Shown: piece by piece, positions 10,878 to 32,296 of the stretch | How positions within the stretch are numbered: position 1 is the first letter of the stretch | How the letters are laid out: each line of letters starts with the position of its first letter | Assembly (NCBI GenBank): GCA_963807635.1 | Contig: CAWEDJ010000077.1 | Span: forward strand, 1 to 36,364 | DNA from: an uncultured cyanobacterium | Lineage (GTDB): Bacteria > Cyanobacteriota > Cyanobacteriia > Cyanobacteriales > Microcystaceae | Direction of reading: 5' to 3' | DNA: 36,364 bases | The notes under the pieces: generated by a model | The model's database searches: none | Told to the model about the DNA's origin: nothing | What the model saw: the letters and a program-made list of their open reading frames with translations, nothing else | Program-made: the position numbers and the translations under genes

Positions 10878-11594
10878 ATGAATGCCTTACTACCCTATCT
10901 TAAAATTCAATCTCCTGATGGCGAGCTAGAAACTTTATCTTTAACGAAGACATATTATAAAATAGGTCGTTTGCCAGATTGTAATGACATTGCTTTGCCA
11001 GAGGAAGAAGGCATTATCACTCGTATGGGGCATTGTATTTTAGAACGGGAGGCTCAGGGATGGGGCATTACAGACAAAAGTACTAATGGAACAATAATAG
11101 AAAGGGAAGATAAGCAGATTCAATTAAAGGAACAACCCAATCAAAAAATATTTCTCTCGTCGGGCGATCGCGTTATTATTCATCATTGGCAGCTTCAATT
11201 TTTTGATCCAAATCAAACCACACCCATTAATTTAACGATTAATAGCAATACTTCTTCTAATTCTTGGATATTTAAACGAAGTCAATTAACTTTCTACAAA
11301 ATGGAACGGGGACAAAGAATTGAAGTCCCTATGCGTTTATATCCCAAGGCTATTCAGATGATTGACTGTTTAGCGGCTAAAAATTTGACTCATGAGAATA
11401 CACCCACGATTTGTCAGTACGATGAATTAATTGAGTGGATTTGGCCAGAGGATAGTTTTGGAAAAGGTAATCAAGATATTAATACTTTAGCTAAAGTGAT
11501 TCGTGTGAAGTTGGAGGAGATGGGAGGCTCGAAGGAGTGGCTAGAAACAAAAAAGACAGTGGGATATATTCTTAGAATTAGCTGTGAAGCATAG
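10878..11594 (+). CDS. FHA domain + C-terminal OmpR-like winged-helix transcriptional regulator
   Basis: FHA motifs IGR..CNDI, ITRMGHC, DKSTNGT. C-terminal YDELIEWIW...INTLAKVIRVKL...LETKKTVGYIL. The ATG at 10878 is more plausible than the GTG at 10773. Confidence 0.8.
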   Translation: MNALLPYLKIQSPDGELETLSLTKTYYKIGRLPDCNDIALPEEEGIITRMGHCILEREAQGWGITDKSTNGTIIEREDKQIQLKEQPNQKIFLSSGDRVIIHHWQLQFFDPNQTTPINLTINSNTSSNSWIFKRSQLTFYKMERGQRIEVPMRLYPKAIQMIDCLAAKNLTHENTPTICQYDELIEWIWPEDSFGKGNQDINTLAKVIRVKLEEMGGSKEWLETKKTVGYILRISCEA

Positions 11595-11595
11595 A

Positions 11596-11666
11596 AATTA
11601 CCATGCAAATTCTAGTTACTTTCCATTTGTTCTCTATGTTCATTACCCTCAATGACTTGATAGGCT
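11596..11666 (+). promoter_or_regulatory. 11-bp tandem repeat operator + extended -10 (site 1)
   Basis: AATTACCATGC AAATTCTAGTT ACTTTCCATTT, 32 nt, then TAGGCT (11661) preceded by TGA. Confidence 0.65.
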
Positions 11667-11695
11667 ACAAAGGATAAAGAAACAGAAACTATCCC

Positions 11696-12346
11696 ATGAA
11701 TCAGCCAAAACCAACTCATCTTAGAATTTTTCGCAGACAATCCCCTGTGCAGGTATTAGGGCCACATAAACGAGCAGTGATCTGGTTGCAAGGTTGTGAT
11801 TGGGGTTGTCGGGGTTGCATTGTCCCTGAGTCCTGGTCAAAAACGGCGGGGGAGTTAGTTTCCCTAGAGGATTTACAGACTTGGATTTTGGCTCAGTCCG
11901 AGATTGAGGGCATTACTTTTTCGGGGGGTGAACCGATGTTACAGGCAGATGCTCTGACGGAGTTGGTGGATAGGTTACGACAGGAACGCGATTTAGGGGT
12001 GGTCTGTTATACGGGTTATACAAATCAGAGGTTAGAGACCCAGGGGACGGTTGCCCAAAAGGTTTTTCTGAGTCGTATTGATCTACTGATTGACGGTCTG
12101 TATAGTGAAAATCAGCATGGTAATTTGCTGTGGCGAGGCTCAAGTAATCAGGGTTTGCATTTATTAACGGAACGTTATCGTACTGTTCTGGCTGAGACTC
12201 TGGAAAGGGGGGATGTTTCGGCGGGATTAGAGTTTGTTTCGAGTACGGAACGGGAACTCTATTTTACGGGAGTGCCTGAGAAAGCAGGGTTTCGGGGGGC
12301 TTTTGAGGCCAAGTTACAAACTAAAGGTATTTTATTGAGGGCTTAA
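11696..12346 (+). CDS. Radical SAM protein, NrdG/organic-radical activase-like
   Basis: LGP.KRAVIWLQGCDWGCRGC (CxxxCxxC), GITFSGGEP, YTGY, DLLIDG, WRGSSNQ. Confidence 0.88.
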   Translation: MNQPKPTHLRIFRRQSPVQVLGPHKRAVIWLQGCDWGCRGCIVPESWSKTAGELVSLEDLQTWILAQSEIEGITFSGGEPMLQADALTELVDRLRQERDLGVVCYTGYTNQRLETQGTVAQKVFLSRIDLLIDGLYSENQHGNLLWRGSSNQGLHLLTERYRTVLAETLERGDVSAGLEFVSSTERELYFTGVPEKAGFRGAFEAKLQTKGILLRA

Positions 12347-13643
12347 GTTATGTTTAATTGGACAGATTTAGAAGGTCAAAGAATTGGCTCCTATCATTTG
12401 GAAAAACTTTTGGGAGCGGGTACCTTTGGTGCGGTTTTTAAGGCGGATGAAGTTTTAAGGGATCGATTTATCAGATCGGTCGCTATTAAAGTTTTTAAAG
12501 AACAGGATATTTTCCCTTTAGATGAGTTAATTGCCACGACAAATTTAGAGCATCCTAATCTCATTCGTGGTTATGTAGCTAGAGAAGATCAGGTTGGCAA
12601 CACTAAATTTAAGGTTCTATATTTAGTGATGGAATTAGCCGATGGAACTTTAAATAATTATCGCCATGCAAATAGTCTAAAATCACAAGAGATTCGAGAA
12701 ATAGCTATTGCAGTTGCTTCAGGTTTAATCTATTTACACAGACAGAAAAAGATACATCAAGATTTAAAGCCTGATAATATTTTACGGGTTAAAAATATCT
12801 GGAAATTGTCCGATTTTGGCTTAATTAGAGATTTGGGCACTCGTAGTTATCTGGCAACACAACATCCCGTAGGGACTTATCCCTATATGTCTCCTGAAAT
12901 CTTTAATGGTGGCATACTTTCTTCAGCTTTTGATGTCTGGTCACTGGGAATTATATTAGTAGAACTGACGACAGGAAAATTACCTTATCAATTTAATGAT
13001 GAACATCATTTAATGAAGCGGGTGATGAATTGTGAATTACATTTGCCACTTTTGCCCGATCAATTTAAGCCAATTATTTTGGGCTGTTTACAACAGAATC
13101 ACCAACGCCGTTGGACTGCTCAACAAATCTTAAAAGCCTTACACCCCACAGTTATTGAATTTGTATCTCCTCCAGTTTCCCCCTCTCCCAATCCCCAAAT
13201 CCTAATCCAAGACTTGCCCAACAACATCAAATTAGAGATGATCAAAATTCCTTCAGGTAGTTTTATGATGGGTTCTGCGAATAATAATTTGAACACTGAT
13301 AATTATGAAAGTCATCAACACCAAGTGACTTTACAGCAATATTTTTTAGGAAAATATCTTGTCACCAATAAACAATATCAAGCTGTAGTAGGAAACAATC
13401 CTTCATATTTTAAAGATAATCCAAAAAATCCTGTTGAATGTGTCAGTTGGAATGATGCGAAAACGTTTTGCCAAAAACTCAAAGAAATTACAGGGAAAGA
13501 ATTTCGTTTACCTACAGAAGCAGAGTGGGAATATGGCTGTCGAGCAATGATCTCCCCAACCGCTCTTAAAAAAGGGTATAGTATGAAGTGGCCCCCCAAA
13601 ACTGGACAGTAGTGTAAGCTCTAAATCGAAACCCAGGAGATCT

Positions 13644-13961
13644 ATGAGCAACAAGAAAAAACAGTACGGTGCCCAGTTCAAAGCCAAAGTCGCCTTAGAA
13701 GCAATTCGAGGAGAAAAAACGGTATCTGAATTAGCCAGTCAATATGAAATTCATCCAACAATGATTAATGGATGGAAAAGAAAAATATTGGAAGAAGCTA
13801 GTCAAATCTTTGAGACAGAAAAACAAGGAAAAGAAATCAAAGAAAAAGCTGAAACCCAGATAGATGAACTATATCGACAAATAGGAAAGCTAAAAGTCGA
13901 GCGAGATTTTTTAGTAGACAGGTCGGTACAATTGGGGCTGCCGACCGAAAAACCTTGGTAG
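13644..13961 (+). CDS. IS3-family transposase OrfA
   Basis: FKAKVALEAIRGEKTVSELASQYEIHP HTH and LYRQIGKLKVERDFL zipper. Confidence 0.92.
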   Translation: MSNKKKQYGAQFKAKVALEAIRGEKTVSELASQYEIHPTMINGWKRKILEEASQIFETEKQGKEIKEKAETQIDELYRQIGKLKVERDFLVDRSVQLGLPTEKPW

Positions 13962-14776
13962 ACCCCAAGCATCCTGAATTGTGTATCCAACGTCAATGTG
14001 AATTATTAGGAATAAGTCGTTCGAGTTATTATTACGAACCGAAGGAAATAAGTTCCGAAGAATTAACGCTATTGAGACTGTTGGATGAGCAATATATGAA
14101 AACACCATTTTATGGGAGTAGAAAAATGACAGTATACCTCAATACGTTGGGTTATGAGGTAAATCGAAAAAGAGTGATACGATTGATGAATCAATTGGGG
14201 ATACAAGCAATTTACCCAAAGAAACGAACAACAATACGAAACCCTGAGCATCAAATTTATCCTTACTTATTACGAGAGTTAAGCATTGAAAAAGCCAATC
14301 AAGTGTGGTGTACCGACATCACCTATTTGCCAATAGGAAAAGGACACTTTTATCTAGTCGCCATTATGGATTGGTTTAGCCGTAAAGTCTTATCATGGAG
14401 GATGAGTAACACGATGGATGTTTATTTTTGTAAGTCAGCTTTGGAGGAAGCATTATTAATTTATGGCAAACCAGACATCTTTAATAGTGATCAAGGAAGC
14501 CAATTTACTTCAAAGGAATTTACAGGATGTTTAAAGCAAGAAAACATCAAAATTAGTATGGATGGAAGAGGACGTTGCTACGACAATATTTTTATTGAAA
14601 GATTGTGGCGTTCTCTGAAATACGAATTAATTTATATTTATTCCTTTGAGGATGGAAAACACTTGACAGAAGAGGTAAAGAAATGGTTTAATTTCTATAA
14701 TAAGGAACGTTTCCATCAAGCCTTAGAATATCAAACGCCAGAGCAAGTCTACGGTCAAAGTTTGAATTTGACTTGA
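13955..14776 (+). CDS. IS3-family transposase OrfB (DDE)
   Basis: WCTDITY, FNSDQGSQF, DNIFIERLWRSLKYE; overlaps OrfA in the -1 frame. Confidence 0.93.
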   Translation: MVDPKHPELCIQRQCELLGISRSSYYYEPKEISSEELTLLRLLDEQYMKTPFYGSRKMTVYLNTLGYEVNRKRVIRLMNQLGIQAIYPKKRTTIRNPEHQIYPYLLRELSIEKANQVWCTDITYLPIGKGHFYLVAIMDWFSRKVLSWRMSNTMDVYFCKSALEEALLIYGKPDIFNSDQGSQFTSKEFTGCLKQENIKISMDGRGRCYDNIFIERLWRSLKYELIYIYSFEDGKHLTEEVKKWFNFYNKERFHQALEYQTPEQVYGQSLNLT

Positions 14777-15257
14777 GAGAACGTTTTTAGTTAGGGAGTC
14801 CGTTAACTTCAGAGCTTCACTCCCCGCTATTTTTGTTCAGCCTATTGGGGCCACCTCAGTACACCTCTTTACTGTTTTGGCGATAACGAAAATCAGCTAG
14901 AAAACTATGCTTGGTATCGGAACAACTCAGGTGGTAAAACCCATCCTGTAGGACAGAAAAAGCCGAATCAATGGGGGCTATATGATATGCACGGAAATGT
15001 ATGGGAATGGTGTGAGGATGGTTGGCATGAGAGTTATGCAGAGAAACCAGGAAATCTCAAAACCAATGGCAACATTATATGGTCAGGTGATAGTAATTTT
15101 CATATACTGCGTGGCGGTTCTTGGTACGACTATGCAAGGGGCCTGTCGTTCGGCTATTCGGAACAGGATCAATACAGATTACAGAAACAACCTCATCGGT
15201 TTTCGCTTGGCTCTTTCTATTTTGTGAGATCCCTTATTGAGATTGGGAGATGAGGGA

Positions 15258-15766: not shown

Positions 15767-17452
15767 CTAAACGGCGATCGCCTGAAGCTTTTCAATTAAA
15801 TCCCCCCGCCGAAAAGTTGCCGAAAGCTGCTGTAAAGAAACCGCTTGTCCTCCATATAAACTATTCAGCGCAAACTGAACATCCTGAACTGCTCCATTAA
15901 ATAAATCGTCTCCCTTTTCTTGAATTAAACGATGGGCCTCCTCAAAATAGCGATGATTCAACTCATTAAGATTGATCCTCATTGAACTTAATAGCCGTCG
16001 CCCCATTTGCATGGCAATAAAACAGGAAGCATAACGCACAAAATCAGGATCATTTGCCTCTGGTCGCTTACGCCGATTCTCAGCCATTCGATATAAATAA
16101 ACCGCAATCACAACCTGAGTGCCATTAAGCTGATTCGTAAAAATAAAATCGTAGAGTTTACCGAAATGTTCACGGGTAAAAAACTTCGCTTGATGGGGTT
16201 TTTCTCGCCAAATGGCTAACACAGCTTCTGCCGCCACTCCTGCCGTTATATCCGTAGATTTAAGACTCGAATCAGAGCGTTTACGACGATAGGTAAACCC
16301 CAATTGCTGGAGATCAATTTCTAATCTTTGTTGACGCTCATCATTAGCACGTAAATCCTTTAAATCTACTGGATTTTGACTATTGGTTGCATAGGTAATT
16401 TTTTGGACTAAATCTTCATTGTCACTGGGTAATTGATAGAGGCGCAGTAAAACATAGGCTTGGGAATTTTGCTGAAGCAAATTTAATAAATTTGGCTCTT
16501 GTAAGGTTCTAAAAATGGTCATACAAGTTTGACCACCATTAATAATTTGCAGATTTTCTACCCGCACCTTATAGTCGCCATTTTGAAGCGCGTTATAGGA
16601 AAATTTATCGCAAATCAAGGTAATGCCATTATTGTAAAAATAAAAATTACTTTTCTCCTCATTCATCAAAGTATTGCGAATGCCTTCATTAACTCGATTC
16701 CCTTGTAACCCCAAATAACGACGAATATTTCTTTCTAATAAACGCTCTCCATGTCGTTCAATCAGAGCCGCAATTTCAGTAACCGCAACTCTCCCCACTA
16801 ATACCCGACTAAAATTGAGATCTTCCACCACAGCTTGCCCACTGAGTTGGAGATGATCATTGACAGGTTTGGAGGCTTGGAGAATTTTAACTAAACGATC
16901 AGGATTGACGTGTTCCCAGGTCGCTTGATCCCCAAAACCTGCTCGATCAATAGCTTCCTGGGCGGAGGCATTCCACTCCAAGCCGTTGTTACAGGCTAAG
17001 GCTCGAATTTGGGGAATATAACCATCTCGAATGAGACTACGAGCTTCTTCGACTTTAGTTAATAAACGGGGATTAATATAGTCTAATTTGGCTGTCGGAT
17101 CGAATAAAAAACGAATGGCATTGATTAAAGCAGTTATTCCTTCTTCGGGAAAATTGGCATTGCCTTCTAAGTTATTTTTATATTTTCCTTGAAATAAACT
17201 AACGGTAAATTCACCATCATATTCTTCCGAAAGATGGATTGCATCTACACCAAAATCTCCACCGCCTTCTGTTAAGCAATCAAAAGCAACATCATTGTCT
17301 AAATCCAAAATGGTTTTAACACAAAAATAGACGAAAGATAAAGATTTGAGCCTACCTGCATCGGTAATACGCAATTCTTCCGCCGCTTGTTGGCGAATTT
17401 CTTCAACGACTGAAGTTAAACGTTGGTCAATGATAGAAACATTGATATTCAT
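15767..17452 (-). CDS. AIPR family (abortive infection phage resistance) protein
   Basis: DFGVDAI..FQGKY N-terminus; ERNIRRYLG, FYFYNNGIT, QIINGGQT, ATNSQNPV. Confidence 0.9.
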   Translation of the reverse strand: MNINVSIIDQRLTSVVEEIRQQAAEELRITDAGRLKSLSFVYFCVKTILDLDNDVAFDCLTEGGGDFGVDAIHLSEEYDGEFTVSLFQGKYKNNLEGNANFPEEGITALINAIRFLFDPTAKLDYINPRLLTKVEEARSLIRDGYIPQIRALACNNGLEWNASAQEAIDRAGFGDQATWEHVNPDRLVKILQASKPVNDHLQLSGQAVVEDLNFSRVLVGRVAVTEIAALIERHGERLLERNIRRYLGLQGNRVNEGIRNTLMNEEKSNFYFYNNGITLICDKFSYNALQNGDYKVRVENLQIINGGQTCMTIFRTLQEPNLLNLLQQNSQAYVLLRLYQLPSDNEDLVQKITYATNSQNPVDLKDLRANDERQQRLEIDLQQLGFTYRRKRSDSSLKSTDITAGVAAEAVLAIWREKPHQAKFFTREHFGKLYDFIFTNQLNGTQVVIAVYLYRMAENRRKRPEANDPDFVRYASCFIAMQMGRRLLSSMRINLNELNHRYFEEAHRLIQEKGDDLFNGAVQDVQFALNSLYGGQAVSLQQLSATFRRGDLIEKLQAIAV

Positions 17453-17527: not shown

Positions 17528-17597
17528 AAATTCCATCTAAATTCCAGACAATTTACAGATACCTACAATTCCCTTCTGATCAGAGATTCCCTATGCT
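17528..17597 (+). promoter_or_regulatory. 11-bp tandem repeat operator + -10 (site 2)
   Basis: AAATTCCATCT AAATTCCAGAC AATTTACAGAT, 31 nt, then TATGCT (17592). Confidence 0.72.
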
Positions 17598-18958: not shown

Positions 18959-19348
18959 ATGGATCATGAACAGCCTCAAAAAATCAAAACCCATGAAGAT
19001 TTAAGAGTCTATCAAATGGCTTTTGAGGCCGCGATCGCCATTTTTGAACTATCCAAACAGTTTCCCATTGAAGAACGCTATTCTTTAACCGATCAAATCC
19101 GTCGCTCCTCCCGTTCCGTTTGTGCCAATCTAGCCGAAGCTTGGAGAAAAAGACGTTATCAAGCGGCATTTATCGCTAAATTAAATGATAGCGAAGCCGA
19201 AGCCGCAGAAGTCCAGGTGTGGTTGAAATTCGCTGTTAAATGTGGCTACTTAGACATCGAAACAGGCAGACAACTGTATGCCCAATATAATCAAATTCTC
19301 GGCAGCCTCGTCACCATGATCAAAAACCCCAAAAACTGGCTCCTCTAA
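18959..19348 (+). CDS. Four-helix bundle protein (23S-IVP/Avd-like family)
   Basis: DLRVYQ.AF, FPIEERYSLTDQIRRSSRSVCANLAEAW, EAAEVQVWL.FA..CGY. Confidence 0.9.
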   Translation: MDHEQPQKIKTHEDLRVYQMAFEAAIAIFELSKQFPIEERYSLTDQIRRSSRSVCANLAEAWRKRRYQAAFIAKLNDSEAEAAEVQVWLKFAVKCGYLDIETGRQLYAQYNQILGSLVTMIKNPKNWLL

Positions 19349-19479
19349 CCCCCAATCTCCCCATCCCCCTAATCTCCCCATCCCCCTAATCTCCCCCTCT
19401 CCCAGTCCTCCCCCTCTCCCAGTCCTCCCCCTCTCCCCTCTCCCAATCTCCTCATCCCCCTAATCTCCCCAACTCCCCT
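19349..19479 (+). repeat. C-rich STRR-like tandem repeat tract
   Basis: Units such as TCTCCCCA, TCCCCCTAA, TCTCCCAG, TCCTCCCCC fill the whole intergenic space. Confidence 0.9.
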
Positions 19480-21161: not shown

Positions 21162-21271
21162 CATGAGGAGATATGGAAACTATGAGAATTAGGAGATTGA
21201 AAAGAATTAACACAAATCATTTTAAATGTTCTTATAAAAATCACTGTATCTTTAAATTCAAACTTCTACCC

Positions 21272-21983: not shown

Positions 21984-22054
21984 AAATTCCAGCCAAATTC
22001 CAGCTAATCTCCATCCCCTTACCATTCAAATTAGCCTATCCTCCTTGATACAGT
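21984..22054 (+). promoter_or_regulatory. 11-bp tandem repeat operator + extended -10 (site 3)
   Basis: AAATTCCAGCC AAATTCCAGCT AATCTCCATCC, 32 nt, then TACAGT (22049) preceded by TGA. Confidence 0.75.
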
Positions 22055-22081: not shown

Positions 22082-24043
22082 ATGACAAGCGATCGCCTAA
22101 TTTCCGCCCGTTGGATACAGGACTTTGAAAAACAACTTTATCGCCGCCGCCATCTCATTCTCTATGGCAATATCCACGATCAATTTCTCTGGCGAGGAGC
22201 CTATCTCGGTATTCAAGACTTTTTACAAACCTACTTTCAAGACTTAGGCTTTGACCTCGTTTCCCGTTATGACCCCATTGATGGCTTCACCTTTGCCCAG
22301 GAAACCATGCGGACAGAATTCGATCGCCTAACCCAACAAGCCCTACAACCTAACCCCGTTTCTCCCAATCCCCCTGTCTCCCCCGTCTCTCCTATTGCTC
22401 CACCCCCACGCCGTAGCCCTGCCGCCAACGTCCCCCGTCAAGTTAATCAACGGATTATTCCTGAAGAAGCTTTTGGGAATCTGCGGGTAGTCGTCAAACA
22501 GGAAAAAATCCCCACCGCCACCGTCATTGATCTTGGCGATATGCTCACTACCGACGGCGATCGCTATCCTGTCGAAGAACGCAATGCCCTGATTTTATTG
22601 AAAAAATGTACCCTAGAAGCGGCGATCGTCCGAGAAGGCAATTTAACGGGCTATCGCAACACCCTGATTATTCTTGCCAGTGACCTCAATCGCGTTCCTG
22701 TCTGGTTCCATGCCAACAATCCCCACGTCAGCATTATCCAAGTAACCCGTCCTAACAAAGAAGAACGCAAACAATTTATTCTGCGCTTTGGGCAAGAAGG
22801 ATTTTATCGCGGGCAACAAGCCCGTCCCGATACCTCGGAATTAACAAGTCTAGCGGAGGATTTTGCAGAATTGACCGATGGTTTTCAGACCTTGGAACTG
22901 GAAGCTCTACGCCATACTTCCCACCGTGAAAAACTTCCCCTCAGCCAAAAAGAGCTAATCAAATTAGTAGATTTTTATAAATTTGGGCAAAAAGAAGAAC
23001 CCTTTGAACAAATTAATGCTGAAAAAATTAGTCAAGCCAGAGAGCAATTAACCCGTTCTGTTCTGGGACAAAATCATGCTATTGAAGCGGTAACAAATAT
23101 GTTAACCAATGCCAAAGTGGGCATCAGTATGAGTCAGGTCAGTGGCCGCAATAGCAAACCCAAAGGAGTCTTTTTCTTTGTGGGGCCAACGGGCGTGGGT
23201 AAAACGGAATTAGCGAAATCCCTCAGTCGTCTGATTTTTGGGGATGAAGAGGCTTTTTTACGCTTTGACATGAGTGAATACAAGGAAGAACACGCGGCAG
23301 AAAAGTTAGCAGGTGCGCCTCCTGGGTTTGTGGGCTATGAAGAAGGGGGACAATTAACCAATAAAATTTTGGAACGTCCCTACCGTATTTTGCTCTTTGA
23401 TGAAATTGAAAAAGCCCATCCCAAAGTATTGGATAAATTCTTACAAATTCTCGAAGATGGTCGTCTAACCGATGGCAAAGGACAGACCGCCTATTTTAAT
23501 CAAACGGTAATTATTTTCACGAGTAATATCGGAGCTTCAGACCTGAGCGATCCGCAAACAGGAACAGTGATTCGTCCAGGCATTATGAATCAAGTGCAAG
23601 CGGGCGGGGTTGAAAATTTCAGCTATGAACAAGTCCAAGATCATTTTCAAGAAGAAGTAAAATGGTATTTCACCAGTCGCATTGGTCGCGCTGAATTGTT
23701 AAATCGTTTGGGGGATAATGTGGTAGTTTTTGATTTATTACGTCCCGATTATGTGGCGGCTATTGGTAACAAATTTTTACGCCAACTGAGCGAATCCGCT
23801 TTGGATAAGTATCAATTAAAATTGACCTTTGAGCCTTCTATTATTGAGGGATTAAGAACAGTAATGGAGCAGCAGGAAAATTTATTGTTTGGGGGACGAC
23901 GCATTAAGAGTTTATTAGAAACTTTGGTGGAGCGTCCGCTCAATCGTTGGTTATTTGAGCATTATCCTGATTTGAATCTTTTAATGGGCAAGGCTTTATC
24001 ATTAGGATTTAATTCCAGTAATGATTTAGTAGTTAAGGAGTAA
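22082..24043 (+). CDS. ClpB-like AAA+ ATPase with a degenerate N-terminal module and an intact C-terminal (D2-type) module
   Basis: FFVGPTGVGKTELAK, RFDMSEY, GAPPGFVGY, LFDEIEKAHP, FTSNIG, ELLNRL, GGRRI. The N-terminal LILYGNIHD lacks a Walker A lysine; no Clp N-domain. Confidence 0.88.
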   Translation: MTSDRLISARWIQDFEKQLYRRRHLILYGNIHDQFLWRGAYLGIQDFLQTYFQDLGFDLVSRYDPIDGFTFAQETMRTEFDRLTQQALQPNPVSPNPPVSPVSPIAPPPRRSPAANVPRQVNQRIIPEEAFGNLRVVVKQEKIPTATVIDLGDMLTTDGDRYPVEERNALILLKKCTLEAAIVREGNLTGYRNTLIILASDLNRVPVWFHANNPHVSIIQVTRPNKEERKQFILRFGQEGFYRGQQARPDTSELTSLAEDFAELTDGFQTLELEALRHTSHREKLPLSQKELIKLVDFYKFGQKEEPFEQINAEKISQAREQLTRSVLGQNHAIEAVTNMLTNAKVGISMSQVSGRNSKPKGVFFFVGPTGVGKTELAKSLSRLIFGDEEAFLRFDMSEYKEEHAAEKLAGAPPGFVGYEEGGQLTNKILERPYRILLFDEIEKAHPKVLDKFLQILEDGRLTDGKGQTAYFNQTVIIFTSNIGASDLSDPQTGTVIRPGIMNQVQAGGVENFSYEQVQDHFQEEVKWYFTSRIGRAELLNRLGDNVVVFDLLRPDYVAAIGNKFLRQLSESALDKYQLKLTFEPSIIEGLRTVMEQQENLLFGGRRIKSLLETLVERPLNRWLFEHYPDLNLLMGKALSLGFNSSNDLVVKE

Positions 24044-24098: not shown

Positions 24099-24172
24099 CT
24101 GGATAAAATGACATACGGACATTATAATGTAAAACTAGATTAGGCAATTTGAGATTTAGAAGAAGTAAAATT

Positions 24173-25928
24173 ATGAATCATGCACCACTTTGGTCAATGC
24201 TAGAAGACCAGATTATCAAAGAACAATACCATTTGAAAGAGCTTTTAGGAGTAGGAGGCTTTGCGGGGGTATTTCGGACGGATGAAGTAATTAAAGATAC
24301 CTGTGTGCGGGTAATAGCAACTAAACTAATTCCTATTGATAATGTTGGGAACAGTGATAAACAATTACAAGAGTTACAGGCTGGTCTTAGTTGTGATCAT
24401 CCTAATTTACTACGTTGTTATGGAGCAGGAGAAATAACCATTGGCAAACAGTCTTTTTTATATTTATTGATGGAATTAGCAGAGGAAACTTTACAACAAC
24501 GATTAGAAAGAGGTAATGTTTCCACTGAAGAGAGTATAGGTATTTTTAAAGATATTACTGAAGGATTAATATATCTTCATCAAAAAAATCAGGTTCATTT
24601 GGATTTGAAGCCTGCTAATATTTTAAAAATTAATGGAAAATGGAAAATTGGTGATTACGGTTTAGTTCGTTTTATTAATCCTGACAAAAGCTACATCCAA
24701 ACAGCTAATAGTGTAGGAACTCCCTTGTTTGTTCCTCCTGAAAGTTATCAAAATATTATTTTTCATGGATGGGATATTTGGTCATTGGGCATAATTTTTA
24801 CAATTCTGTTGACAGGAAAGTACCCAATTAAATATGAAAGCCCTAACGAATTACAAGAAAAAATTATAAATATTCAATTAGACAATCTTGAGCTTGATAG
24901 TTTAGACCAATGTTACAGAGATATAATTCAAGGGTGCTTAATCAAAGATCGTCAAAAACGTTTAACGGCTATACAAGTGAAGAATTTCTTACCCCCCGTT
25001 AATAAAGATTTTCAATCTTTTATTCCATCAAATATTATATCTAACCCTAGTAAGATCTCAAGAAGGACTTTTTTAATTACAGTCTGGGTTAACTGGAATA
25101 GGAATAGGTTCAGGAGTTTTTGTCTATGCTCGTCCAAAAGATGTAGAAAATGAAATAACATCATTAGTAAAATTAGAAACTTTTAAAGAAACTTTACCTA
25201 GCAATGTCATATTAGAAATGACAAAAATTCCAGCAGGAACATTTTTAATGGGGTCTGCCCCTACTGGTGATTCTGATGCAAGAAAATTTGAAAAGCCTCA
25301 ACATGAAGTAGAAATAAATAAATTTTACTTAGGAAAATATCCTATTACTCATGAACAATATTTAGCTGTAATGAAAAAAAGTCCTTATCCAGTTCAAGAA
25401 GATAGCATTAAAAATCCAGTTGAAAATGTTACATGGGATGATGCCCAAGAATTTTGTCGTCAATTAAGCTCCATGACAAGGAAAGACTATCGTTTACCTA
25501 GCGAAGCTGAGTGGGAATATGCTTGTCGTGCTGAAACAACAACGCCATTTTACTTTGGTAATAATGCTAATTTATTAAATGAATATGCTTGGTATGTTGC
25601 TAATTCTCAAGATCTAACTCATCCTGTTGGACAAAAGAAACCAAATAAATGGGGACTCTATGATATGTACGGTAATGTTGCTGAATGGTGTCAAGATGGA
25701 TGGCATGATAATTACATTGGTGCACCTACCGACGGCTCTGTATGGAATGGTAAAAATCTTCTGTGGAATCCATCTGATAAGATTATGCGTGGAGGTTCTT
25801 ATTTTGATGATATAGAGTCATGTCGATCTGCTGATCGGAGTGCTACTGATAAAAATATAGTTGTTAGTAGTATCGGTTTTCGAGTAGCTGTGTCATTTAC
25901 TTTTAGAACTGAAATAACATACTCATAA
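24173..25928 (+). pseudogene. Ser/Thr kinase-(TM)-FGE-sulfatase(CLec) fusion 3, frameshift at about 25075-25085
   Basis: Kinase (GVGGFAG, ATK, HLDLKPAN, DYG) runs to SRRTFL. The shifted frame reads LQSGLTGIGIGSGVFVYARPKDVENE...LPSNVILEMTKIP, continuous with ORF 25218..25928. Confidence 0.82.
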
Positions 25929-25966: not shown

Positions 25967-26036
25967 AATTTCCAGCTAAATTCCATCTAAATACCAGCCG
26001 TTTTCAATGGAGATTTCCAAAGTAACTTGATAACCT
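25967..26036 (+). promoter_or_regulatory. 11-bp tandem repeat operator + extended -10 (site 4)
   Basis: AATTTCCAGCT AAATTCCATCT AAATACCAGCC, 31 nt, then TAACCT (26031) preceded by TGA. Confidence 0.75.
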
Positions 26037-26068: not shown

Positions 26069-27058
26069 ATGAAAACCCTCTCCCTCCTTACCTCTGGTAT
26101 TATCCTCACCGCTACTGGTATCCTAACAGGACAAAATATGGCAACCATGCTGGGAACCGCGATCGCCGCTTCTGTGACCACCACCGCAATCTCTACCAGC
26201 GAAGAAAAAAAGAAAACCAACACCGCTCTGCAAGCCATAGAAACCGCGATCGCCACCACAGAAACGGCAATCCAACAGAAAATCGAAACTATTGAACAAA
26301 AAGTCAAAATCACAACCAAAACCACTGACAAAATCAGCAAAGAAATCCAAACTCTCCAGACCAGTAAACGCCTCATTATTGCAAAACTACAAACAGCCCA
26401 AAAACAACAAACTATTTTTTCTGGCAAACTTAACCATCAGCAACAACAGTTAACGGCTCTCAAAGCTCAACCCCCAATCCCACAGCCTCAGAAAACCGAA
26501 AAAAAAGTTCTTTCCTTTCTACCCAAGCAACGTCAAACCGTAACCCATATCTCCATTGACGGCAATAACTTTAGCAAAACGGCTGAAGAACTCAGTTTAG
26601 CCATTGACTGGAAGGCTTTAAAAATTGCCCTCACGGAACAGACTCAAGGAACGGATACTTTCACTTTAAAATATTACACAGGTCTGTACGAGAATCCGAC
26701 CTATGAGCAACGATCAAAACTCAACTATCTAAAATCCTTAAAATATGAGGTGATCTCGCTTCCCCTATCTCGACAAGGTAACGGAAAATGGAAAACTATC
26801 GGTGATGATATGGCGATCGGAGTTGACCTCATGGACTCCGTACAATCAGGCGATCAAGTCATCTTAGTAACAGGAGATGGAGACTTTCTTCCTCTAATTC
26901 ACAAACTATTAGATCGCCGAGCTAATGTTATCGTCATTGGAGCTTCTTCCCATACTAATTACCGCCTACAGGCATTACAACAAGAGGGTTTTCAATTTAT
27001 TCGTTTGGAATCCATTAGTGAACAAATTAGTCAATTGCAAAAACTAGCAGTTGCTTAA
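26069..27058 (+). CDS. NYN/LabA-DUF88 (PIN-fold) nuclease with N-terminal hydrophobic helices and coiled coil
   Basis: ISIDGNN, KTIGDDMAIGVD, LVTGDGDFLPL; hydrophobic residues 1-38, then a coiled coil. Confidence 0.82.
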   Translation: MKTLSLLTSGIILTATGILTGQNMATMLGTAIAASVTTTAISTSEEKKKTNTALQAIETAIATTETAIQQKIETIEQKVKITTKTTDKISKEIQTLQTSKRLIIAKLQTAQKQQTIFSGKLNHQQQQLTALKAQPPIPQPQKTEKKVLSFLPKQRQTVTHISIDGNNFSKTAEELSLAIDWKALKIALTEQTQGTDTFTLKYYTGLYENPTYEQRSKLNYLKSLKYEVISLPLSRQGNGKWKTIGDDMAIGVDLMDSVQSGDQVILVTGDGDFLPLIHKLLDRRANVIVIGASSHTNYRLQALQQEGFQFIRLESISEQISQLQKLAVA

Positions 27059-27180: not shown

Positions 27181-29592
27181 ATGTTTGCCGCACCACTTTG
27201 GAGAATGTTGGAAGGACAGATCATCAAAGATCAATATTATCTCCAGCAAGTGCTAGGAACAGGGACTTTTGGCGGAGTTTTTCGCACGGATCAAGTGGTT
27301 CGAGATACGATTTTAAGAACTTTAGCAACAAAAGTGATTTTTATTAATCAACCTGAATTAGTCAGCTATCAATTACGAGAGCTACAGGTTGCCCTAAATT
27401 TTGATCATCCTAATTTGATAAAATGCCATGATGCAGGAGAAGCAAAAATTGAAAAGCTCTCTATTTCTTGTCTCTATCTATTAATGGAGTTAGCAGAGGA
27501 AACCTTAGAAAATAAATTGAAGCGAGGAAATATCTCTACAGAAGAAGTCAAAGTAATTGTTGAAAATATTGCTGAAGGATTAGCTTATTTACATGAAAAG
27601 GAGCAGGTGCATTTAGACCTCAAACCTGCCAATATTTTAAAAGTTAATGGGCATTGGAAGATTGGAGACTATGGTTTAGTTCGTAGTCTTGATCCTCAAC
27701 GAAGTTATATGGAAACGATGAACTTCTCTTTAGGAACCACAGCTTATTCTCCTCCAGAAAGTTATCAGGGTATTATTGCACCTGCATGGGATATGTGGTC
27801 ATTAGGAATAATTACTGTGATGTTATTAAAAGGTAAGTATCCGATTCAGTTTCAAACGCAAGAAGAGTTAGGAGAAAAGATTAAAGCGGGTCAATTTAAT
27901 AACCTTAATTGGGATGATTTAGAAGAGCCTTGGTGGAAGATTATTCAAGGATGTTTACAAGTCAACCGTCAGCAACGTTGGACAGCTAAACAAGTTTTAT
28001 CGGAACTTAATTCGGAAAATATCCCAGTTCTGACTATTATACTTCCTGGTGGAATTGAATTAGAAATGATCAAAATTCCTGCGGGTAGTTTTTTGATGGG
28101 TTCTGCGGATAATGAATTTGATGCTTATGCTTCTGAAAAACCGCAACATCGAGTGACTTTACAGGAATATTATCTAGGGAAATACCCTGTAACTCAAGAA
28201 CAGTATCAAGCAGTGATGGGTAACAATCCTTCACGCTTTAAAGACAATTCTAACAATCCCGTTGAGCAAGTAATTTGGAATGATGCGAAAGCTTTTTGTC
28301 AAAAGCTGAAAGAAATTACAGGAAAAGAATTTCGTTTACCAACAGAAGCAGAATGGGAATATGGCTGTCGAGCAGGGACAACAACGCCGTTTTACTTTGG
28401 AGAAACTACATCAACAGAGCAAGCCAATTACAATGGGAACTATACATTTGGAGAAGGAAAAAAAGGAATCTATCGAGAGAAAACAACGCCAGTGGGAAGT
28501 TTTCCCGCTAACAAATTTGGACTATATGATATGCACGGAAACGTGTGGGAATGGTGCGAAGACAGTTGGCATGACAGCTATGCTGAGAAACCAGAGAGTA
28601 TTAAACAGAATGGAAATACTCTCTGGTCATCTAGTAATGAATTACCTCACATACTGCGCGGTGGTTCTTGGAGCCGCGATCCGAGATACTGTCGTTCGGC
28701 GATTCGGCGCAGGGGGGGTAAGGGGAGCAACTACAACGGTTTTCGCTTGGCTCTTCCCATACAGGTTCGTCAGACCTCAGAACCAACCATCATTCAATTT
28801 GCAACTCCCCCAGTCTCCCTCTCTTCCTCGTCTCCCAATCCCCCAGTCCTCACCCTAGACCTTCCTACTAACGTCAAATTAGAGATGATCAAAATCCCTG
28901 CGGGTAGTTTTTTGATGGGTTCTGCGGACAATGATCCTGATGCTTATAATGAAGAAAAACCTCAACATCGAGTTACCTTACAGGAATATTATTTAGGGAA
29001 ATATCCTGTTACCCAAGAACAATATCAAGCAGTAATGGGTAACAATCCTTCAGGGTTTGATGATGATCTTAAAAATCCCGTTGAACAAGTCAGTTGGAAT
29101 GATGCCAAAACCTTCTGTCAAAAGTTATATGAAATCACGGAGAAAAAAGTTCGCTTACCAACAGAAGCGGAATGGGAATATGGCTGTCGAGCAGGGACAA
29201 CAACACCGTTTTACTTTGGAGAAACTATATCAACAGAGCAAGCCAATTACAATGGAAACCATTTCTTTGCCCAAAAGAAAGGAGGTATCTATCGGGAGAA
29301 AACAACCCCAGTGGGAAGCTTCCCAATGAACAAATTTGGACTATATGATATGCACGGAAATGTGTGGGAATGGTGCGAAGATAGTTGGCATGAAAGCTAT
29401 GCAGAAAAACCAGAGAACCTCAAATCCAATGGCAATACTATATGGCTATCTGCAATAGACCAAGGTCATCATCTGCGCGGTGGTTCTTGGCACAGCAAAT
29501 TGAGGGACTGTCGTTCGGCGTGTCGAGATAGGTTCCTTGCAGATTACTGGGACGAATCTCTTGGTTTTCGCTTGGCTCTTTCCATTTCTTAA
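27181..29592 (+). CDS. Ser/Thr kinase with two tandem FGE-sulfatase(CLec) domains (fusion 4, intact)
   Basis: GTGTFG, ATK, HLDLKPAN, DYG; two copies of RLPTEAEWEY...[12 protein letters not shown]...RGGSW...GFRLAL. AAGGAG RBS. Confidence 0.93.
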   Translation: MFAAPLWRMLEGQIIKDQYYLQQVLGTGTFGGVFRTDQVVRDTILRTLATKVIFINQPELVSYQLRELQVALNFDHPNLIKCHDAGEAKIEKLSISCLYLLMELAEETLENKLKRGNISTEEVKVIVENIAEGLAYLHEKEQVHLDLKPANILKVNGHWKIGDYGLVRSLDPQRSYMETMNFSLGTTAYSPPESYQGIIAPAWDMWSLGIITVMLLKGKYPIQFQTQEELGEKIKAGQFNNLNWDDLEEPWWKIIQGCLQVNRQQRWTAKQVLSELNSENIPVLTIILPGGIELEMIKIPAGSFLMGSADNEFDAYASEKPQHRVTLQEYYLGKYPVTQEQYQAVMGNNPSRFKDNSNNPVEQVIWNDAKAFCQKLKEITGKEFRLPTEAEWEYGCRAGTTTPFYFGETTSTEQANYNGNYTFGEGKKGIYREKTTPVGSFPANKFGLYDMHGNVWEWCEDSWHDSYAEKPESIKQNGNTLWSSSNELPHILRGGSWSRDPRYCRSAIRRRGGKGSNYNGFRLALPIQVRQTSEPTIIQFATPPVSLSSSSPNPPVLTLDLPTNVKLEMIKIPAGSFLMGSADNDPDAYNEEKPQHRVTLQEYYLGKYPVTQEQYQAVMGNNPSGFDDDLKNPVEQVSWNDAKTFCQKLYEITEKKVRLPTEAEWEYGCRAGTTTPFYFGETISTEQANYNGNHFFAQKKGGIYREKTTPVGSFPMNKFGLYDMHGNVWEWCEDSWHESYAEKPENLKSNGNTIWLSAIDQGHHLRGGSWHSKLRDCRSACRDRFLADYWDESLGFRLALSIS

Positions 29593-29782: not shown

Positions 29783-29841
29783 AATTTCCATCTAATTTCC
29801 ATACAGATTCTATGGAGTCAATCAGATAACCTTGATACGCT
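29783..29841 (+). promoter_or_regulatory. 11-bp tandem repeat operator + extended -10 (site 5)
   Basis: AATTTCCATCT AATTTCCATAC (then a weaker AGATTCTATGG). The second unit ends 31 nt before TACGCT (29836), which is preceded by TGA. Confidence 0.7.
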
Positions 29842-29867
29842 AAAACCAGAAGATTATAGAAAAAACC

Positions 29868-31091
29868 ATGTTTAACCTCCAACTCGATTGGGATAGACCA
29901 AATCAACTCAGTTCCCAATCCGCCAACCATATTCTGCGTATTCGCCTTAACCCAGAAACCTCTGGAACCCAAACCCTTCCTCTCCATTTGGCGATCGCCC
30001 TCGATACTAGCCAATCTATGAACGGCGAAAAACTGACCTCTGCTAAACAAGCCTGTCAGGAAATTTTCAAACATTTGCGCGATCGCGATAAACTATCCCT
30101 CGCCAGCTATTCCCATCAAGTCAATAGCCTCCTCAACCAAGTCCAGGGCAACGATCAACAGGCTCAAACCACCATTAACCAACTCAAAGCCGAAGGGGTG
30201 ACTCGTACCGATTTAGCCCTCAATTGGTTAAAAAAAGCCCTACCCAAGGAAACAGGCATCATTAGAGTCGGCATCTTAGTCACCGATGGCCATGCCACCA
30301 ATAACGGCGGAATCCTGCTCGAAAACCTCAATCCCTTGCTCAATCAAACGACTGAACTCACGGAAGCAGGCATTATTCTTTGTACCGTTGGTTTAGGCAA
30401 TGCCGCTAATTTTAATACCGAGTTTCTGGTTAACCTCAGCGATCGCGGACGAGGAGCCTTTTTGTATGCAGACCGCCCCGAAGATCTGAGCCAACAATTA
30501 CAGGAACGTTTAACCGCCTGTCAAAGCATCGCCACCGATGAACTGAAACTACAATTAAAACCCCTTAATAGCGCAACTTTACAGGGTTTCTGTCAATTTC
30601 GTCCTGAATATCTCCCCCTCGAAGAAACTGCCCCCCATCAACTGACCCTGAGTGGGATTCGCGCTAATCAACCCACCGATATTCTGTTTAATGTCAACGT
30701 TCCCGCCCAGGGCTTTGGGGAAACTCCCACCCGTAAGCCCGTCCTCAATATCGAGTTAACCGCCCCCAATTTAGCCCCCATTCAAGCCCAAACCAGTCTG
30801 CAATATACCAACTCCTACCGTGAAGCCCAACAGGTCAATACCGAAGTCAACAGCGATCGCCTGGGTTGGATTATGAATCAATGCAGTACCGATCTGACTC
30901 GTACTTCTGACCCCCATCGCACAGGGGAATTATTAGTTGATCTCCAGGTCGCTGCCACTAAATCAGGTCAGACCGCGATCGCCCAACAAGCCGCGCAACA
31001 ACTCACAGACCTCCAAAAATCAGGTAAATTAGACCCTCATCAAACCACTGGGCTATTACAGGATACCCGCAAAGTAGGAGGTAACTCATGA
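29868..31091 (+). CDS. von Willebrand factor A (vWA) domain protein
   Basis: MIDAS motif ALDTSQSM, GVTRT, LVTDG, TVGLG. Confidence 0.9.
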   Translation: MFNLQLDWDRPNQLSSQSANHILRIRLNPETSGTQTLPLHLAIALDTSQSMNGEKLTSAKQACQEIFKHLRDRDKLSLASYSHQVNSLLNQVQGNDQQAQTTINQLKAEGVTRTDLALNWLKKALPKETGIIRVGILVTDGHATNNGGILLENLNPLLNQTTELTEAGIILCTVGLGNAANFNTEFLVNLSDRGRGAFLYADRPEDLSQQLQERLTACQSIATDELKLQLKPLNSATLQGFCQFRPEYLPLEETAPHQLTLSGIRANQPTDILFNVNVPAQGFGETPTRKPVLNIELTAPNLAPIQAQTSLQYTNSYREAQQVNTEVNSDRLGWIMNQCSTDLTRTSDPHRTGELLVDLQVAATKSGQTAIAQQAAQQLTDLQKSGKLDPHQTTGLLQDTRKVGGNS

Positions 31092-31492
31092 GTCAAGGCT
31101 TGGGCTTAGACCCCATTCCCGTCCTCAAACACCTGAGTCCAGATCGTACCCGTCTCAAATTACGCAATGGCCCCAAAGCCCAGAAAGAATTTACCCTCCA
31201 TCGACTCTCCCAGATCATCGGACGAAACGCGGCTAATCAAAATCCTATTGAGATTGACCTCAGCGATTGTGAACTTGGTAATCCACCGATGATTTCTCGA
31301 CAACACGCCCTACTGGAATGGATCGATGGAACCCTAAAAATTTGTGACCTGAACAGCCGCAACGGAAGTTGGGTAAATGATCAACAATTGATTTCCACCC
31401 CACCTGGCAAGCCCTCCCCCTTTGTCACCCTGACTATCGGCAATATTATAAAACTCGGCAACCTTGAATTTGAGGTAATCACCTGTGACTAA
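31088..31492 (+). CDS. Stand-alone FHA domain protein
   Basis: IIGR, ISRQHA, DLNSRNGSWVN, IIKLG; ATGA overlap with the vWA gene. Confidence 0.92.
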   Translation: MSQGLGLDPIPVLKHLSPDRTRLKLRNGPKAQKEFTLHRLSQIIGRNAANQNPIEIDLSDCELGNPPMISRQHALLEWIDGTLKICDLNSRNGSWVNDQQLISTPPGKPSPFVTLTIGNIIKLGNLEFEVITCD

Positions 31493-32296
31493 CGAAACCT
31501 TAGCAATTTCCACTCCCATCAAGCTTTCTTGGTGTCAAGCCTATGGTGCAACTGACCTCGGCAAAGTCCGTCACAACAACGAAGACCGCTATCTTCTACA
31601 AGCTGGCCTAATAATGAGGGAATTTTGGCGATTGTCGCTGATGGCATGGGCGGCAGTAGTGCAGGAGAAATCGCCGCTCAAATTGCCATTGATACCTTTG
31701 CTGAATTGCTCGACTCTCCTTTTCCCGAAGAACCCGAACAACAACACGATGCCCTACTCCAACAGTGTTATCTCGCTGATCAACGCATCCGAGAACAAGC
31801 TGTTACCAGTTTTCAGACCCTGGGCATGGGAACCACTATTGTTGCCGCGATCGTCACCCCAAAAACCTGTATTCACCTTTATGCTGGCGATAGTCGTCTC
31901 TACCATTTTCGAGACGGCAAAATTCTTTATCAAACCGCCGATCATTCCATCATTCAACTACTACTAGAAATGGGAAAGATTCAGCCCGAAGATATTCCCA
32001 CCCATCCCATGCGGGCGATCGTCAATTCCTGTTTGGGCGGCAAAAATGGTCAGGGAGATTTTTCCATTGATCCTAAATGGCAAAACGAACATCCTCCCGT
32101 AATTGCCTTGCAAAGCAAAGATAGTGTATTACTTTGCAGTGATGGATTAAGTAACCTAACGACAAATACCACCCTCGAAACCTTAGTCCAAGAATATCCT
32201 GCTCATCCAGACCTTCTCAACAGAGAACTGATACAGTCTGCCTTAGCAAATGGAGGGTCTGACAATATCACCCTCATCACTTTGGCAGTGACTTAA
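31485..32296 (+). pseudogene. PP2C/PPM Ser/Thr phosphatase, frameshift at about 31600
   Basis: GTG 31485: ...TDLGKVRHNNEDRYLLQ; the shifted frame continues WPNNEGILAIVADGMGG, MGTT, GDSR, LLCSDGL, GGSDNIT. One base is missing (CAA[A]GC TGG). Confidence 0.88.

Follow-up and report, generated by a model that had tools for sequence, protein, structure and literature searches.

The closest described counterparts of the gene cassette treated here, which lies on contig C77 (CAWEDJ010000077.1, assembly GCA_963807635.1) of an uncultured cyanobacterium of the Microcystaceae, are the FtsH-type vWA-MoxR ternary conflict systems (Kaur, Burroughs, Iyer, Aravind, eLife 2020, PMC7159879). The window, that is, the whole stretch of DNA analyzed, is the entire contig of 36,364 nucleotides (nt) from an assembly of 4.03 Mb in 107 contigs, and its cassette combines a radical SAM enzyme, a helical protein designated CC, a Clp-like AAA+ ATPase, a vWA protein, an FHA protein, a PP2C phosphatase and Ser/Thr kinases (STKs) with C-terminal sensor domains (Table 1). 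As described in that study, the ternary systems resemble the cassette in having a two-module AAA+ protein whose N-terminal P-loop is lost and whose C-terminal module is active, a vWA partner, a stand-alone radical SAM enzyme whose predicted target is the product of a neighboring gene, additional alpha-helical proteins, and an enrichment in multicellular bacteria. In contrast to those systems, the cassette is devoid of MoxR, its ATPase is of the Clp/Hsp100 type (AAA_2) instead of the FtsH type, its vWA protein stands alone with an intact metal-ion-dependent adhesion site (MIDAS), and it contains kinase, FHA and PP2C genes. The study describes the FtsH-type systems as rare in cyanobacteria. No member of the MoxR family was found among the window open reading frames (ORFs) of at least 80 aa that were scanned for families, AAA_5 giving only a weaker overlap on the Clp-like D2 module.

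A second arrangement for comparison is the TerY-P triad, which consists of a vWA protein, a PP2C phosphatase and a Ser/Thr kinase (PMC11090510, citing Anantharaman 2012 and Gao 2020). As far as the available text of PMC11090510 describes the triad, the same three protein types are encoded together and a phosphorylation switch is presumed to act on the vWA protein. The corresponding features recur in the cassette, where a vWA protein with a MIDAS is encoded near FHA in 16 of 19 long loci (defined below) and near PP2C in 9 of them. However, the zinc ribbon (or OB fold) that the TerY-P kinase carries in that account is replaced by an FGE-sulfatase, GUN4 or beta-helix domain or by none, with S1 in locus L056 only, and the cassette adds FHA, the Clp-like AAA+, CC and the radical SAM enzyme. 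The cassette vWA protein matched none of the families of PADLOC, which is expected to hold TerY-P models, at E ≤ 0.001. Threonine phosphorylation also controls the type VI secretion system (T6SS) through PpkA, PppA, Fha1 and ClpV, in which a Hanks-type kinase, a PP2C phosphatase, an FHA protein, a vWA domain and a ClpB-like ATPase likewise act on one assembly. In contrast to the T6SS switch, the cassette has a radical SAM enzyme and CC, and no T6SS structural family was found among the window ORFs.

No description of the cassette was found in the PADLOC, NCBIfam or Pfam models or in full-text literature searches (main texts without supplements), as a preliminary description of this DNA had supposed. 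PADLOC recognized generic components of the window: kinase models, PDC-M37B and DolB on the ATPase domain, and PDC-M21C (9.8e-6) as the only match on PP2C. The available portions of studies on cyanobacterial targets of diversity-generating retroelements (DGRs; PMC7517822) and on bacterial kinase families (bioRxiv 2025.01.12.632604) do not mention it.

Comparison of genomes revealed that the core genes belong together in a single cassette that is conserved and horizontally mobile. Of 40 relatives, five have a full-length ortholog of the AAA+ protein; the five genomes of the same genus have none, and every genome lacking it gave only paralogous Clp matches over residues ~270-627. All five relatives encode CC alongside (tblastn) and, contig permitting, radical SAM, vWA, FHA, PP2C and one to four kinases nearby; a regulator consisting of FHA and a winged helix-turn-helix (FHA-wHTH) accompanies them in two of the five. 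When one-genome-per-species GTDB contigs were scanned with a pattern derived from the CC alignment, 52 CC loci (labeled L) were obtained, many of them in filamentous cyanobacteria; 13 are non-cyanobacterial, including Abditibacteriaceae, Chthonomonadales and Capsulimonadaceae (Armatimonadota-type lineages), Riflebacteria and UBP7. Neighborhoods were counted by tblastn with the window proteins (E ≤ 1e-4; flank at most 10 kb), a procedure that overlooks distant or displaced members. The 19 long loci extend at least 8 kb in both directions from CC; AAA+ was detected in 18 of them, a kinase in 17, vWA and FHA in 16 each, PP2C and FGE-sulfatase in 9 each, and FHA-wHTH in two. AAA+ follows in 32 of the 34 loci having at least 3 kb downstream of CC, and of the 40 whose contigs reach 1.5 kb or more upstream of CC, 29 have the radical SAM gene. 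The usual order is radical SAM, CC, AAA+, vWA, FHA, PP2C and STK, stops and starts often overlapping and the radical SAM gene adjoining CC in most loci; L048 and L056 have this order in compact form. In L056, genes for a type IV secretion system coupling protein and a relaxase lie directly upstream, and the contig here is plasmid-like; therefore, the cassette is regarded as accessory and mobile. The preliminary description had placed the named domains on the + strand between the ParA and CyRepA1 genes, which the Pfam search reproduced, and had taken the genes for one set with a circuit of kinases, FHA and PP2C beside the vWA protein and the Clp-like ATPase; homologs of these genes do co-occur, in the five relatives and the 52 loci.

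Some CC loci have further companions. A Cdc48-like double AAA protein (PF00004 twice) is encoded beside CC, or beside radical SAM and CC, in L031, L033, L034, L036, L039, L040, L042, L045, L049, L051, L052 and L070, all of Nostocales and Oscillatoria; its gene is mostly directly upstream on the same strand (opposite strand in L049 and L051), and a large LamG-domain protein is encoded close by in most of these loci. Nostoc locus L031 has no Clp-like AAA+ within 10 kb downstream of CC (at least 8 kb available), and none was seen in Nostoc loci L033 and L034, whose contigs end ~1.5 kb and ~0.3 kb past CC. In two Nostocales loci (L036:19672-20700 and L042:18886-19920), a Tle1-like (DUF2235) hydrolase, which may be a local effector, is encoded just downstream of the cassette.

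On the ortholog alignment and the structural model, the AAA+ protein is a Clp-like ATPase with a degenerate, presumably dead D1 and a D2 with intact motifs. The D2 invariants are Walker A GPTGVGKT, Walker B LLFDEIEKA and the ClpB-type pore-loop segment GAPPGFVGY. The N-terminal half has HxILYGNIHD where the P-loop (GxxGxGKT) is expected, followed by a Pro-rich disordered linker with invariant P108 and R110. The ClpB profile TIGR03346 covers only residues 312-625 (3.5e-72; 244 bits against a cut-off of 1232), and the AlphaFold model (pLDDT 76.5) aligns in Foldseek with the two-ring ClpC, ClpB and ClpA at ~1e-26 over 530-690 columns. Because the N-terminal half is D1-like without a P-loop and the model aligns with two-ring Clp ATPases, the protein is not D2-only, as had first been described. 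Compared with class 1 Hsp100 proteins (ClpB/ClpA/ClpC), it has the D2 motifs and the two-tier fold but neither two ATP-binding modules nor the Clp N-domain, no Clp_N match being found in Pfam. A conserved loop, G494-x3-R498-x-G500-I-M502, lies within residues 490-505 directly past the sensor-1 strand, at what we take to be the position of the ClpP-docking IGF/IGL loop of ClpA and ClpX; no protease gene is present in the cassette.

The vWA protein retains its MIDAS residues (D46, S48, S50, T112 and D140) in all 16 orthologs. Its conserved C-terminal tail contains T394-x-x-L397, which is a plausible candidate for an FHA-binding phosphosite. The PP2C gene is intact in relatives, and contigs of related strains have one extra base at the break seen here in three of four runs.

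The radical SAM enzyme has NrdG and the pyruvate formate-lyase (PFL)-activating enzyme as its nearest families. It scores 97.4 bits against NrdG TIGR02491 (7.5e-28), under the curated cut-off of 126.1, and 50.9 bits against the PFLA family, under the cut-off of 231.75; a profile built on it matches PFL-activating enzyme at 2e-11. The CxxxCxxC motif (C34, C38, C41), S76-G-G-E-P80 and WRGSxNQ are invariant, the cluster and SAM motifs having been checked in 19 orthologs. Thus, the cluster and GGE motifs of the NrdG/PflA activases are present, whereas the score stays below the curated level and a cognate glycyl radical enzyme is missing, no NrdD or PFL family occurring among the window ORFs.

CC constitutes a protein family of its own, and no protein of related fold is known for the conserved domain at its C-terminus. 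CC has no Pfam, PADLOC or NCBIfam match, and its 152 homologs at E ≤ 1e-5 are all unnamed or "hypothetical". PF26137.1 is precomputed for two of the homologs, an assignment that our own Pfam scan at E ≤ 10 did not reproduce. In the AF2 model (pLDDT 85.9), helices span residues 9-308 and are followed by a small alpha/beta domain (312-391) of six strands and one helix. Residues M1, S2, P5 and K6 at the extreme N-terminus and R295, Y297, G356, C373, W400, K403 and P405 are invariant across phyla, and [YF]357 is, like G356 and C373, invariant or nearly so across four phyla; in the model, G356 sits between strands 351-355 and 361-365. A profile of the C-terminal domain found 253 representatives at E ≤ 0.001 among 1.84 billion (representatives at 50% identity). 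Among the 150 matches listed, the domain ends ~15-65 residues from the C-terminus of proteins mostly ~425 aa long, and a Pfam scan of seven of the longer carriers (455-1050 aa) gave no family. The same profile found nothing better than E 0.11 among PDB sequences and no glycyl radical enzyme chain, and Foldseek found no PDB match to the CC model at E ≤ 0.001. A wide VIA-align search with the CC model gave generic helical matches only, and the C-terminal domain matched the spermine synthase N-domain and KA1 weakly (Z 8.2 each). In the ESM Atlas, residues 285-426 matched unnamed clusters with a best score of 0.89. Complex prediction of the radical SAM enzyme (with S-adenosylmethionine and a 4Fe-4S cluster) and CC residues 285-426 gave an ipSAE of 0.00 in both runs. 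In the UBP7-type loci L063 (8724-11284) and L072, two CC paralogs are encoded in tandem.

Four kinase-domain ORFs were found by Pfam (starting at 12350, 19480, 24149 and 27181), all keeping the lysine, the catalytic aspartate and the D[FY]G motif in their translations. Of the four kinase genes counted in the preliminary description, only that of kinase 4 joins kinase and sensor in an unbroken frame. An insertion sequence (IS) interrupts kinase 1, and kinases 2 and 3 have single-base frameshifts at positions (20270 and 25085) where related contigs have no indel among the matches listed; the two halves of kinase 2 are contiguous and in frame in L022. When both frames are read at 25085, a hydrophobic stretch, RRTFLITV / GLTGIGIGSGVFVYARPK, appears between the kinase and FGE domains of kinase 3. 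Therefore, kinase 3 alone of the four looks membrane-spanning, and the term "receptor", applied earlier to all four, fits this kinase only. The C-terminal domain differs between genomes and may be FGE-sulfatase, GUN4, S1 (only L056), a beta-helix or none. The FGE-sulfatase domain has a C-type lectin fold (Kaur et al., PMC7159879, available portions), so that the lectin domains of the earlier description were right as to fold and variability and wrong as to identity. A blastn search for a DGR template repeat with five FGE 3' ends against the whole assembly (93.7% complete) returned their own paralogs only (68-81% identity), and joints between FGE paralogs were seen in related metagenome contigs.

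The FHA-wHTH regulator is encoded in an ORF that opens at GTG 10773; ortholog alignments begin at M36, corresponding to 10878. A profile built from four orthologs detects the SaeR and ArlR DNA-binding domains at 1.1e-4 to 1e-3, the SaeR domain over its whole length at 1.1e-4. No receiver domain is present at the N-terminus, where FHA stands instead. Regulators of the OmpR/PhoB type usually bind tandem direct repeats of 11 bp, and the pair EmbR/PknH likewise couples an OmpR-type winged helix to FHA. In contrast to EmbR and OmpR-type regulators, the order here is FHA and then winged helix, with neither a BTA nor a receiver domain, and DNA binding is predicted. The coupling of FHA to an OmpR-type DNA-binding domain suggests that a Ser/Thr kinase, not a histidine kinase, feeds the regulator.

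A window scan for AAWTTCCA-N3-AAWTTCCA with up to two mismatches gave 10 overlapping matches forming five sites, all on the + strand, where 0.53 were expected; none of 100 shuffles reached 10. Each site precedes the ATG of one of five genes (radical SAM, CC, AAA+, NYN and vWA) by 56-103 nt, confirming the motif earlier assigned to five units, and no site lies upstream of the regulator or kinase genes in the window. An equivalent of site 2 is found 88-114 nt upstream of CC in seven other loci. In 11 aligned promoters, five from the window and six from L021, L035, L022, L023 and G034, three to four repeats of 11 bp are followed after ~23 nt by an invariant TAnnnT, with ~30 nt to the ATG, placing the direct repeats beside a -10 box as in pho boxes. 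From this spacing, the last 11-bp repeat occupies the position of the -35 box. With up to one mismatch, the motif occurs in seven of the 52 CC loci, always on the + strand, and also in G034; most sites are 84-114 nt upstream of CC, AAA+ or vWA, and a few are farther away or without a core gene within 300 nt. Orthologs of the regulator were found in L021, L035 and G034 only. Both long loci encoding FHA-wHTH have the motif, the other five motif loci are short contigs in which the regulator could be off the end, and the remaining 45 have neither motif nor FHA-wHTH. The regulator and the 11-bp direct-repeat promoters thus occur together, in one subclade only, and this co-occurrence ties the regulator to the shared motif as had been proposed. 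FHA-wHTH would be the activator of the five window promoters, to judge from these sequence features. A generic sigma-70 promoter scan (49 against 48.5 expected) and terminator predictions (17 against 18.1) were uninformative. An exact copy of the promoter repeat at L021:15792-15810, between an AI-2E transporter gene and a - strand pair of small genes (76 and 110 aa), has no + strand gene behind it and may be a relic of a lost regulon member.

Several genes within the region are local. The AIPR, four-helix-bundle and MNT/HEPN genes occur in one of the 52 loci, L022, a contig of a Snowella metagenome-assembled genome whose gene arrangement is the same and whose copies of those genes are 91-99% identical. 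An ortholog of the NYN nuclease was found in none of the 52 loci, its best match among the 40 relatives having 34% identity, and NYN, AIPR, the four-helix-bundle protein, MNT and HEPN were each found in none of the 19 long loci. In a metagenome contig with ~95% identity to the window, position 24181 is followed directly by 27190, so that kinase 4 follows AAA+ without kinase 3 and NYN. Therefore, these genes are insertions into the cassette and not members, the AIPR gene lying moreover on the - strand; NYN, first described as an effector, is not conserved and appears instead to be a local recruit that was drawn into the regulon by acquiring a cassette promoter. A C-rich tandem repeat at 19334-19487 (units of 8-9 and 17 nt, CCCCTAATCTCCCCAT-like) separates the four-helix-bundle gene from kinase 2. 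Because 60 nt of this stretch are missing from a related metagenome contig, the copy number varies between strains.

The contig looks like part of a cyanobacterial plasmid, and the core genes are single-copy in the source genome. A megablast of 10700-32400 against PLSDB plasmids gave nothing beyond one 228-bp match; the sequencing-run search listed no RNA run, and the highest share of sampled words in any run was 0.14. The ParA gene is interrupted: 47 residues including a GGQGKS P-loop and then a stop are encoded at 10330-10536 (-), and the remainder is in another frame. The 1.1 kb of non-coding DNA that precedes the CyRepA1 gene contains two tandem copies of TCTGGAAATAACCAAA (about 33080-33120), possibly origin iterons. 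A second CyRepA1 copy on contig C4 of the same genome (2719-5649; 99-100% protein identity) is broken into four tblastn pieces, which suggests strain heterogeneity or assembly indel errors. To the left lie the Dnd genes, among which DndC matches only profile positions 171-472 of 481, its N-terminal third being gone, and also a BrnT/BrnA pair. Two divergent ORFs of ~620 aa, 5202-7067 (-) and 7279-9135 (+), give a faint tyrosine-recombinase signal (Phage_int_SAM_1 0.007; XerC 5.8e-4) and may serve plasmid resolution or integration.

Table 1. Positions of the cassette genes, their promoter repeats and surrounding features in the window.
Feature	Position	Strand	Matches and remarks
DndD	runs off contig left end; Dnd genes span 2-2147	-	
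Phosphorothioate-dependent HNH restriction gene	3200-4198		left side
ParA-like gene	9659-10393	-	left border of cassette region
FHA + OmpR/PhoB-type winged-helix regulator	10878-11594	+	FHA 2.2e-6; Trans_reg_C 5.5e-5
Promoter repeat site 1	11596-11625	+	upstream of radical SAM gene
NrdG/PflA-like radical SAM enzyme, 216 aa	11696-12346	+	Fer4_12 5.3e-31; Radical_SAM (Pfam)
Kinase 1 (Ser/Thr) + 5' part of FGE-sulfatase	12350-13612	+	Pkinase 8.8e-47; FGE profile positions 4-124 of 255
IS3-type transposase orfA/orfB, inserted in kinase 1	13644-14776	+	HTH_Tnp_1, rve, HTH_21
3' remnant of kinase 1 FGE-sulfatase	14965-15253 (Pfam domain ORF 14987-15253)	+	FGE profile positions 181-231; repeat families D6/D7
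AIPR/AbiU-like gene	15767-17452	-	AIPR 6.2e-54; PADLOC AbiU 1.2e-45
Promoter repeat site 2	17528-17557	+	upstream of CC
CC, helical protein, 426 aa	17631-18911	+	without Pfam, PADLOC or NCBIfam match
Four-helix-bundle (23S rRNA IVP/Avd-like) protein	18959-19348	+	PF05635 6.6e-31
Kinase 2 (Ser/Thr)-FGE-sulfatase	19480-21161 (FGE 20259-21161)	+	split by 1-nt frameshift near 20270
MNT nucleotidyltransferase/HEPN pair	21173-21969	+	NTP_transf_2, HEPN; MntA-like
Promoter repeat site 3	21984-22013	+	upstream of AAA+ gene
Clp-like AAA+	22082-24043	+	AAA_2 4.3e-51
Kinase 3 (STK3)-hydrophobic membrane-spanning-like segment-FGE-sulfatase	24149-25928 (FGE 25218-25928)	+	single-base frameshift near 25085
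Promoter repeat site 4	25967-25996	+	upstream of NYN
LabA-like NYN nuclease, hydrophobic N-terminus	26069-27058	+	NYN 7.5e-15; PADLOC PDLC01154 2.8e-85, full length
Kinase 4 (Ser/Thr), two FGE-sulfatase domains	27181-29592	+	Pkinase 3.4e-43; FGE-sulfatase 5.5e-106, 2 stretches
Promoter repeat site 5	29783-29812	+	upstream of vWA-FHA-PP2C
vWA protein	29868-31091	+	VWA 2.7e-14; intact MIDAS; conserved C-terminal tail
Stand-alone FHA protein	31088-31492	+	FHA 8e-12; start overlaps vWA stop
PP2C phosphatase	31485-32296	+	PP2C_2 9e-12; Stp1-type 7.7e-48; 1-nt frameshift near 31603
CyRepA1-family replication gene	33384 to contig right end (runs off)	+	NF042913 1.1e-101

Taken as a system, the phospho-signaling proteins probably control the unfolding ATPase, the radical enzyme and CC in response to invaders or stress. 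The kinases would be made constitutively and sense a ligand through their lectin-fold FGE-sulfatase domains, phosphorylating threonines, for which the TxxL tail of the vWA protein is a candidate. The FHA protein would read these phospho-marks and PP2C would erase them, and the phospho-state may gate a vWA/AAA+ machine that engages and remodels CC, itself putatively modified by the radical SAM enzyme. In the one subclade, FHA-wHTH would pass this signal on to four tandem 11-bp repeats standing in for the -35 box, switching on five units, namely radical SAM, CC, AAA+, NYN and vWA-FHA-PP2C. A role of such a phospho-switched remodeling cassette in conflict or defense, rather than in housekeeping, is the reading we prefer, tentatively and at slightly less than an even chance. 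It is favored by the patchy cross-phylum spread, the plasmid location here, the conjugation genes in L056, the swapped sensor domains, the variable kinase number and the FGE-paralog joints; on this contig, the cassette has also gained unrelated defense genes and an extra kinase-NYN module.

Several observations weigh against this reading. The conserved core has no toxic effector recognizable by Pfam, and the substrates of the kinases and of the radical SAM enzyme are putative, the steps of the mechanism being inferred throughout. The radical SAM gene is absent from 11 of the 40 evaluable loci and PP2C from 10 of the 19 long ones; therefore, neither is obligatory within 10 kb. The single regulator sequence scores 23.6 bits against Trans_reg_C, under the Pfam cut-off of 26.2. 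Among 100 flanking ORFs from 16 long loci, most are housekeeping genes, with PIN, Uma2, DUF559 and transposase genes scattered among them, and therefore the cassette is not generally in defense islands. The defense role put forward in the preliminary description is a plausible proposal; outside this plasmid, the genes around the cassette are mostly housekeeping. On this contig, finally, three kinases, PP2C and ParA are broken, possibly through decay or assembly error.

Those flanks and the absence of a toxin-like domain also speak for housekeeping or stress signaling, in which the kinases would report tetrapyrrole (GUN4), RNA (S1) or cell-surface glycans (FGE/beta-helix) and the AAA+/vWA pair would remodel a structural scaffold of coiled coils, for instance to maintain the membrane or cell envelope of filamentous or colonial bacteria. 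GUN4 and S1 sensors suggest endogenous ligands, many hosts are filamentous cyanobacteria, and the PADLOC matches are generic only (kinase models and the ClpB-like ATPase domain). However, a housekeeping function sits poorly with presence in 5 of 40 relatives and in none of the five same-genus genomes, with spread across phyla, with a plasmid-borne copy here and one beside conjugation genes, with the fast turnover of sensor domains and kinase copy number, and with the recruitment of an RNase to the regulon. This explanation is considered unlikely, though with an appreciable share of probability.

The broken genes raise another explanation, also unlikely but not lightly set aside, in which the cassette on this contig is a decaying remnant of a degenerating plasmid and does not work as a system. 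The IS in kinase 1, the frameshifts in kinases 2 and 3, PP2C and ParA, the missing first 170 profile positions of DndC and the extra base of related strains (three of four runs) at the PP2C break fit such decay; given the IS insertion and three frameshifts within the cassette, it is perhaps only partly functional here. On the other hand, the radical SAM, CC, AAA+, vWA, FHA, regulator and kinase 4 genes and all five promoters are intact, and in kinases 2 and 3 the kinase domain is still an open frame that keeps its catalytic residues. Single-base indels in a metagenome-assembled genome may, moreover, be assembly errors, the CyRepA copy on C4 being likewise broken.

An improbable alternative is that the radical SAM enzyme is a glycyl-radical-type activase with CC as its substrate, G356 at a beta-hairpin tip losing a hydrogen or being otherwise modified, with C373 nearby, and that CC is a new radical or self-cleaving effector loaded or reset by the AAA+ protein. 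The kinship with NrdG and PFL-activating enzyme, the adjacency of the radical SAM and CC genes in most loci, with no Clp-like AAA+ neighbor in Nostoc L031, L033 and L034 (the contigs of the latter two ending early), the near-invariance of G356, [YF]357 and C373 across four phyla and the placement of G356 between two model strands are consistent with it. However, the C-terminal domain of CC has no sequence similarity to glycyl radical enzymes or solved chains (best E 0.11), its motif is without the arginine of the glycyl radical signature RVxG[YF], the radical SAM gene is missing from the neighborhood in 11 of 40 loci, and glycyl radicals are oxygen-labile while the hosts are oxygenic. A fuller version, that CC is a new radical-bearing or radical-modified protein with G356 as the target, which the kinase-gated Clp-like ATPase and vWA protein load, fire or reset, is a long shot. 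A chance pile-up of genes in a defense island is rejected by the gene order conserved across phyla.

If the long shot on CC were true, the cassette would be a protein-radical effector system outside metabolism, spread horizontally across at least four phyla. With its defined regulator, five repeat-coded promoters, swapped sensor domains and the CC family, the cassette offers a clean test bed. If it is a working system, it would join eukaryote-like Ser/Thr phospho-signaling, Hsp100-type unfolding and radical SAM chemistry on a protein partner, which have so far been studied apart, and would provide a function for an orphan NrdG-like enzyme in oxygenic bacteria.

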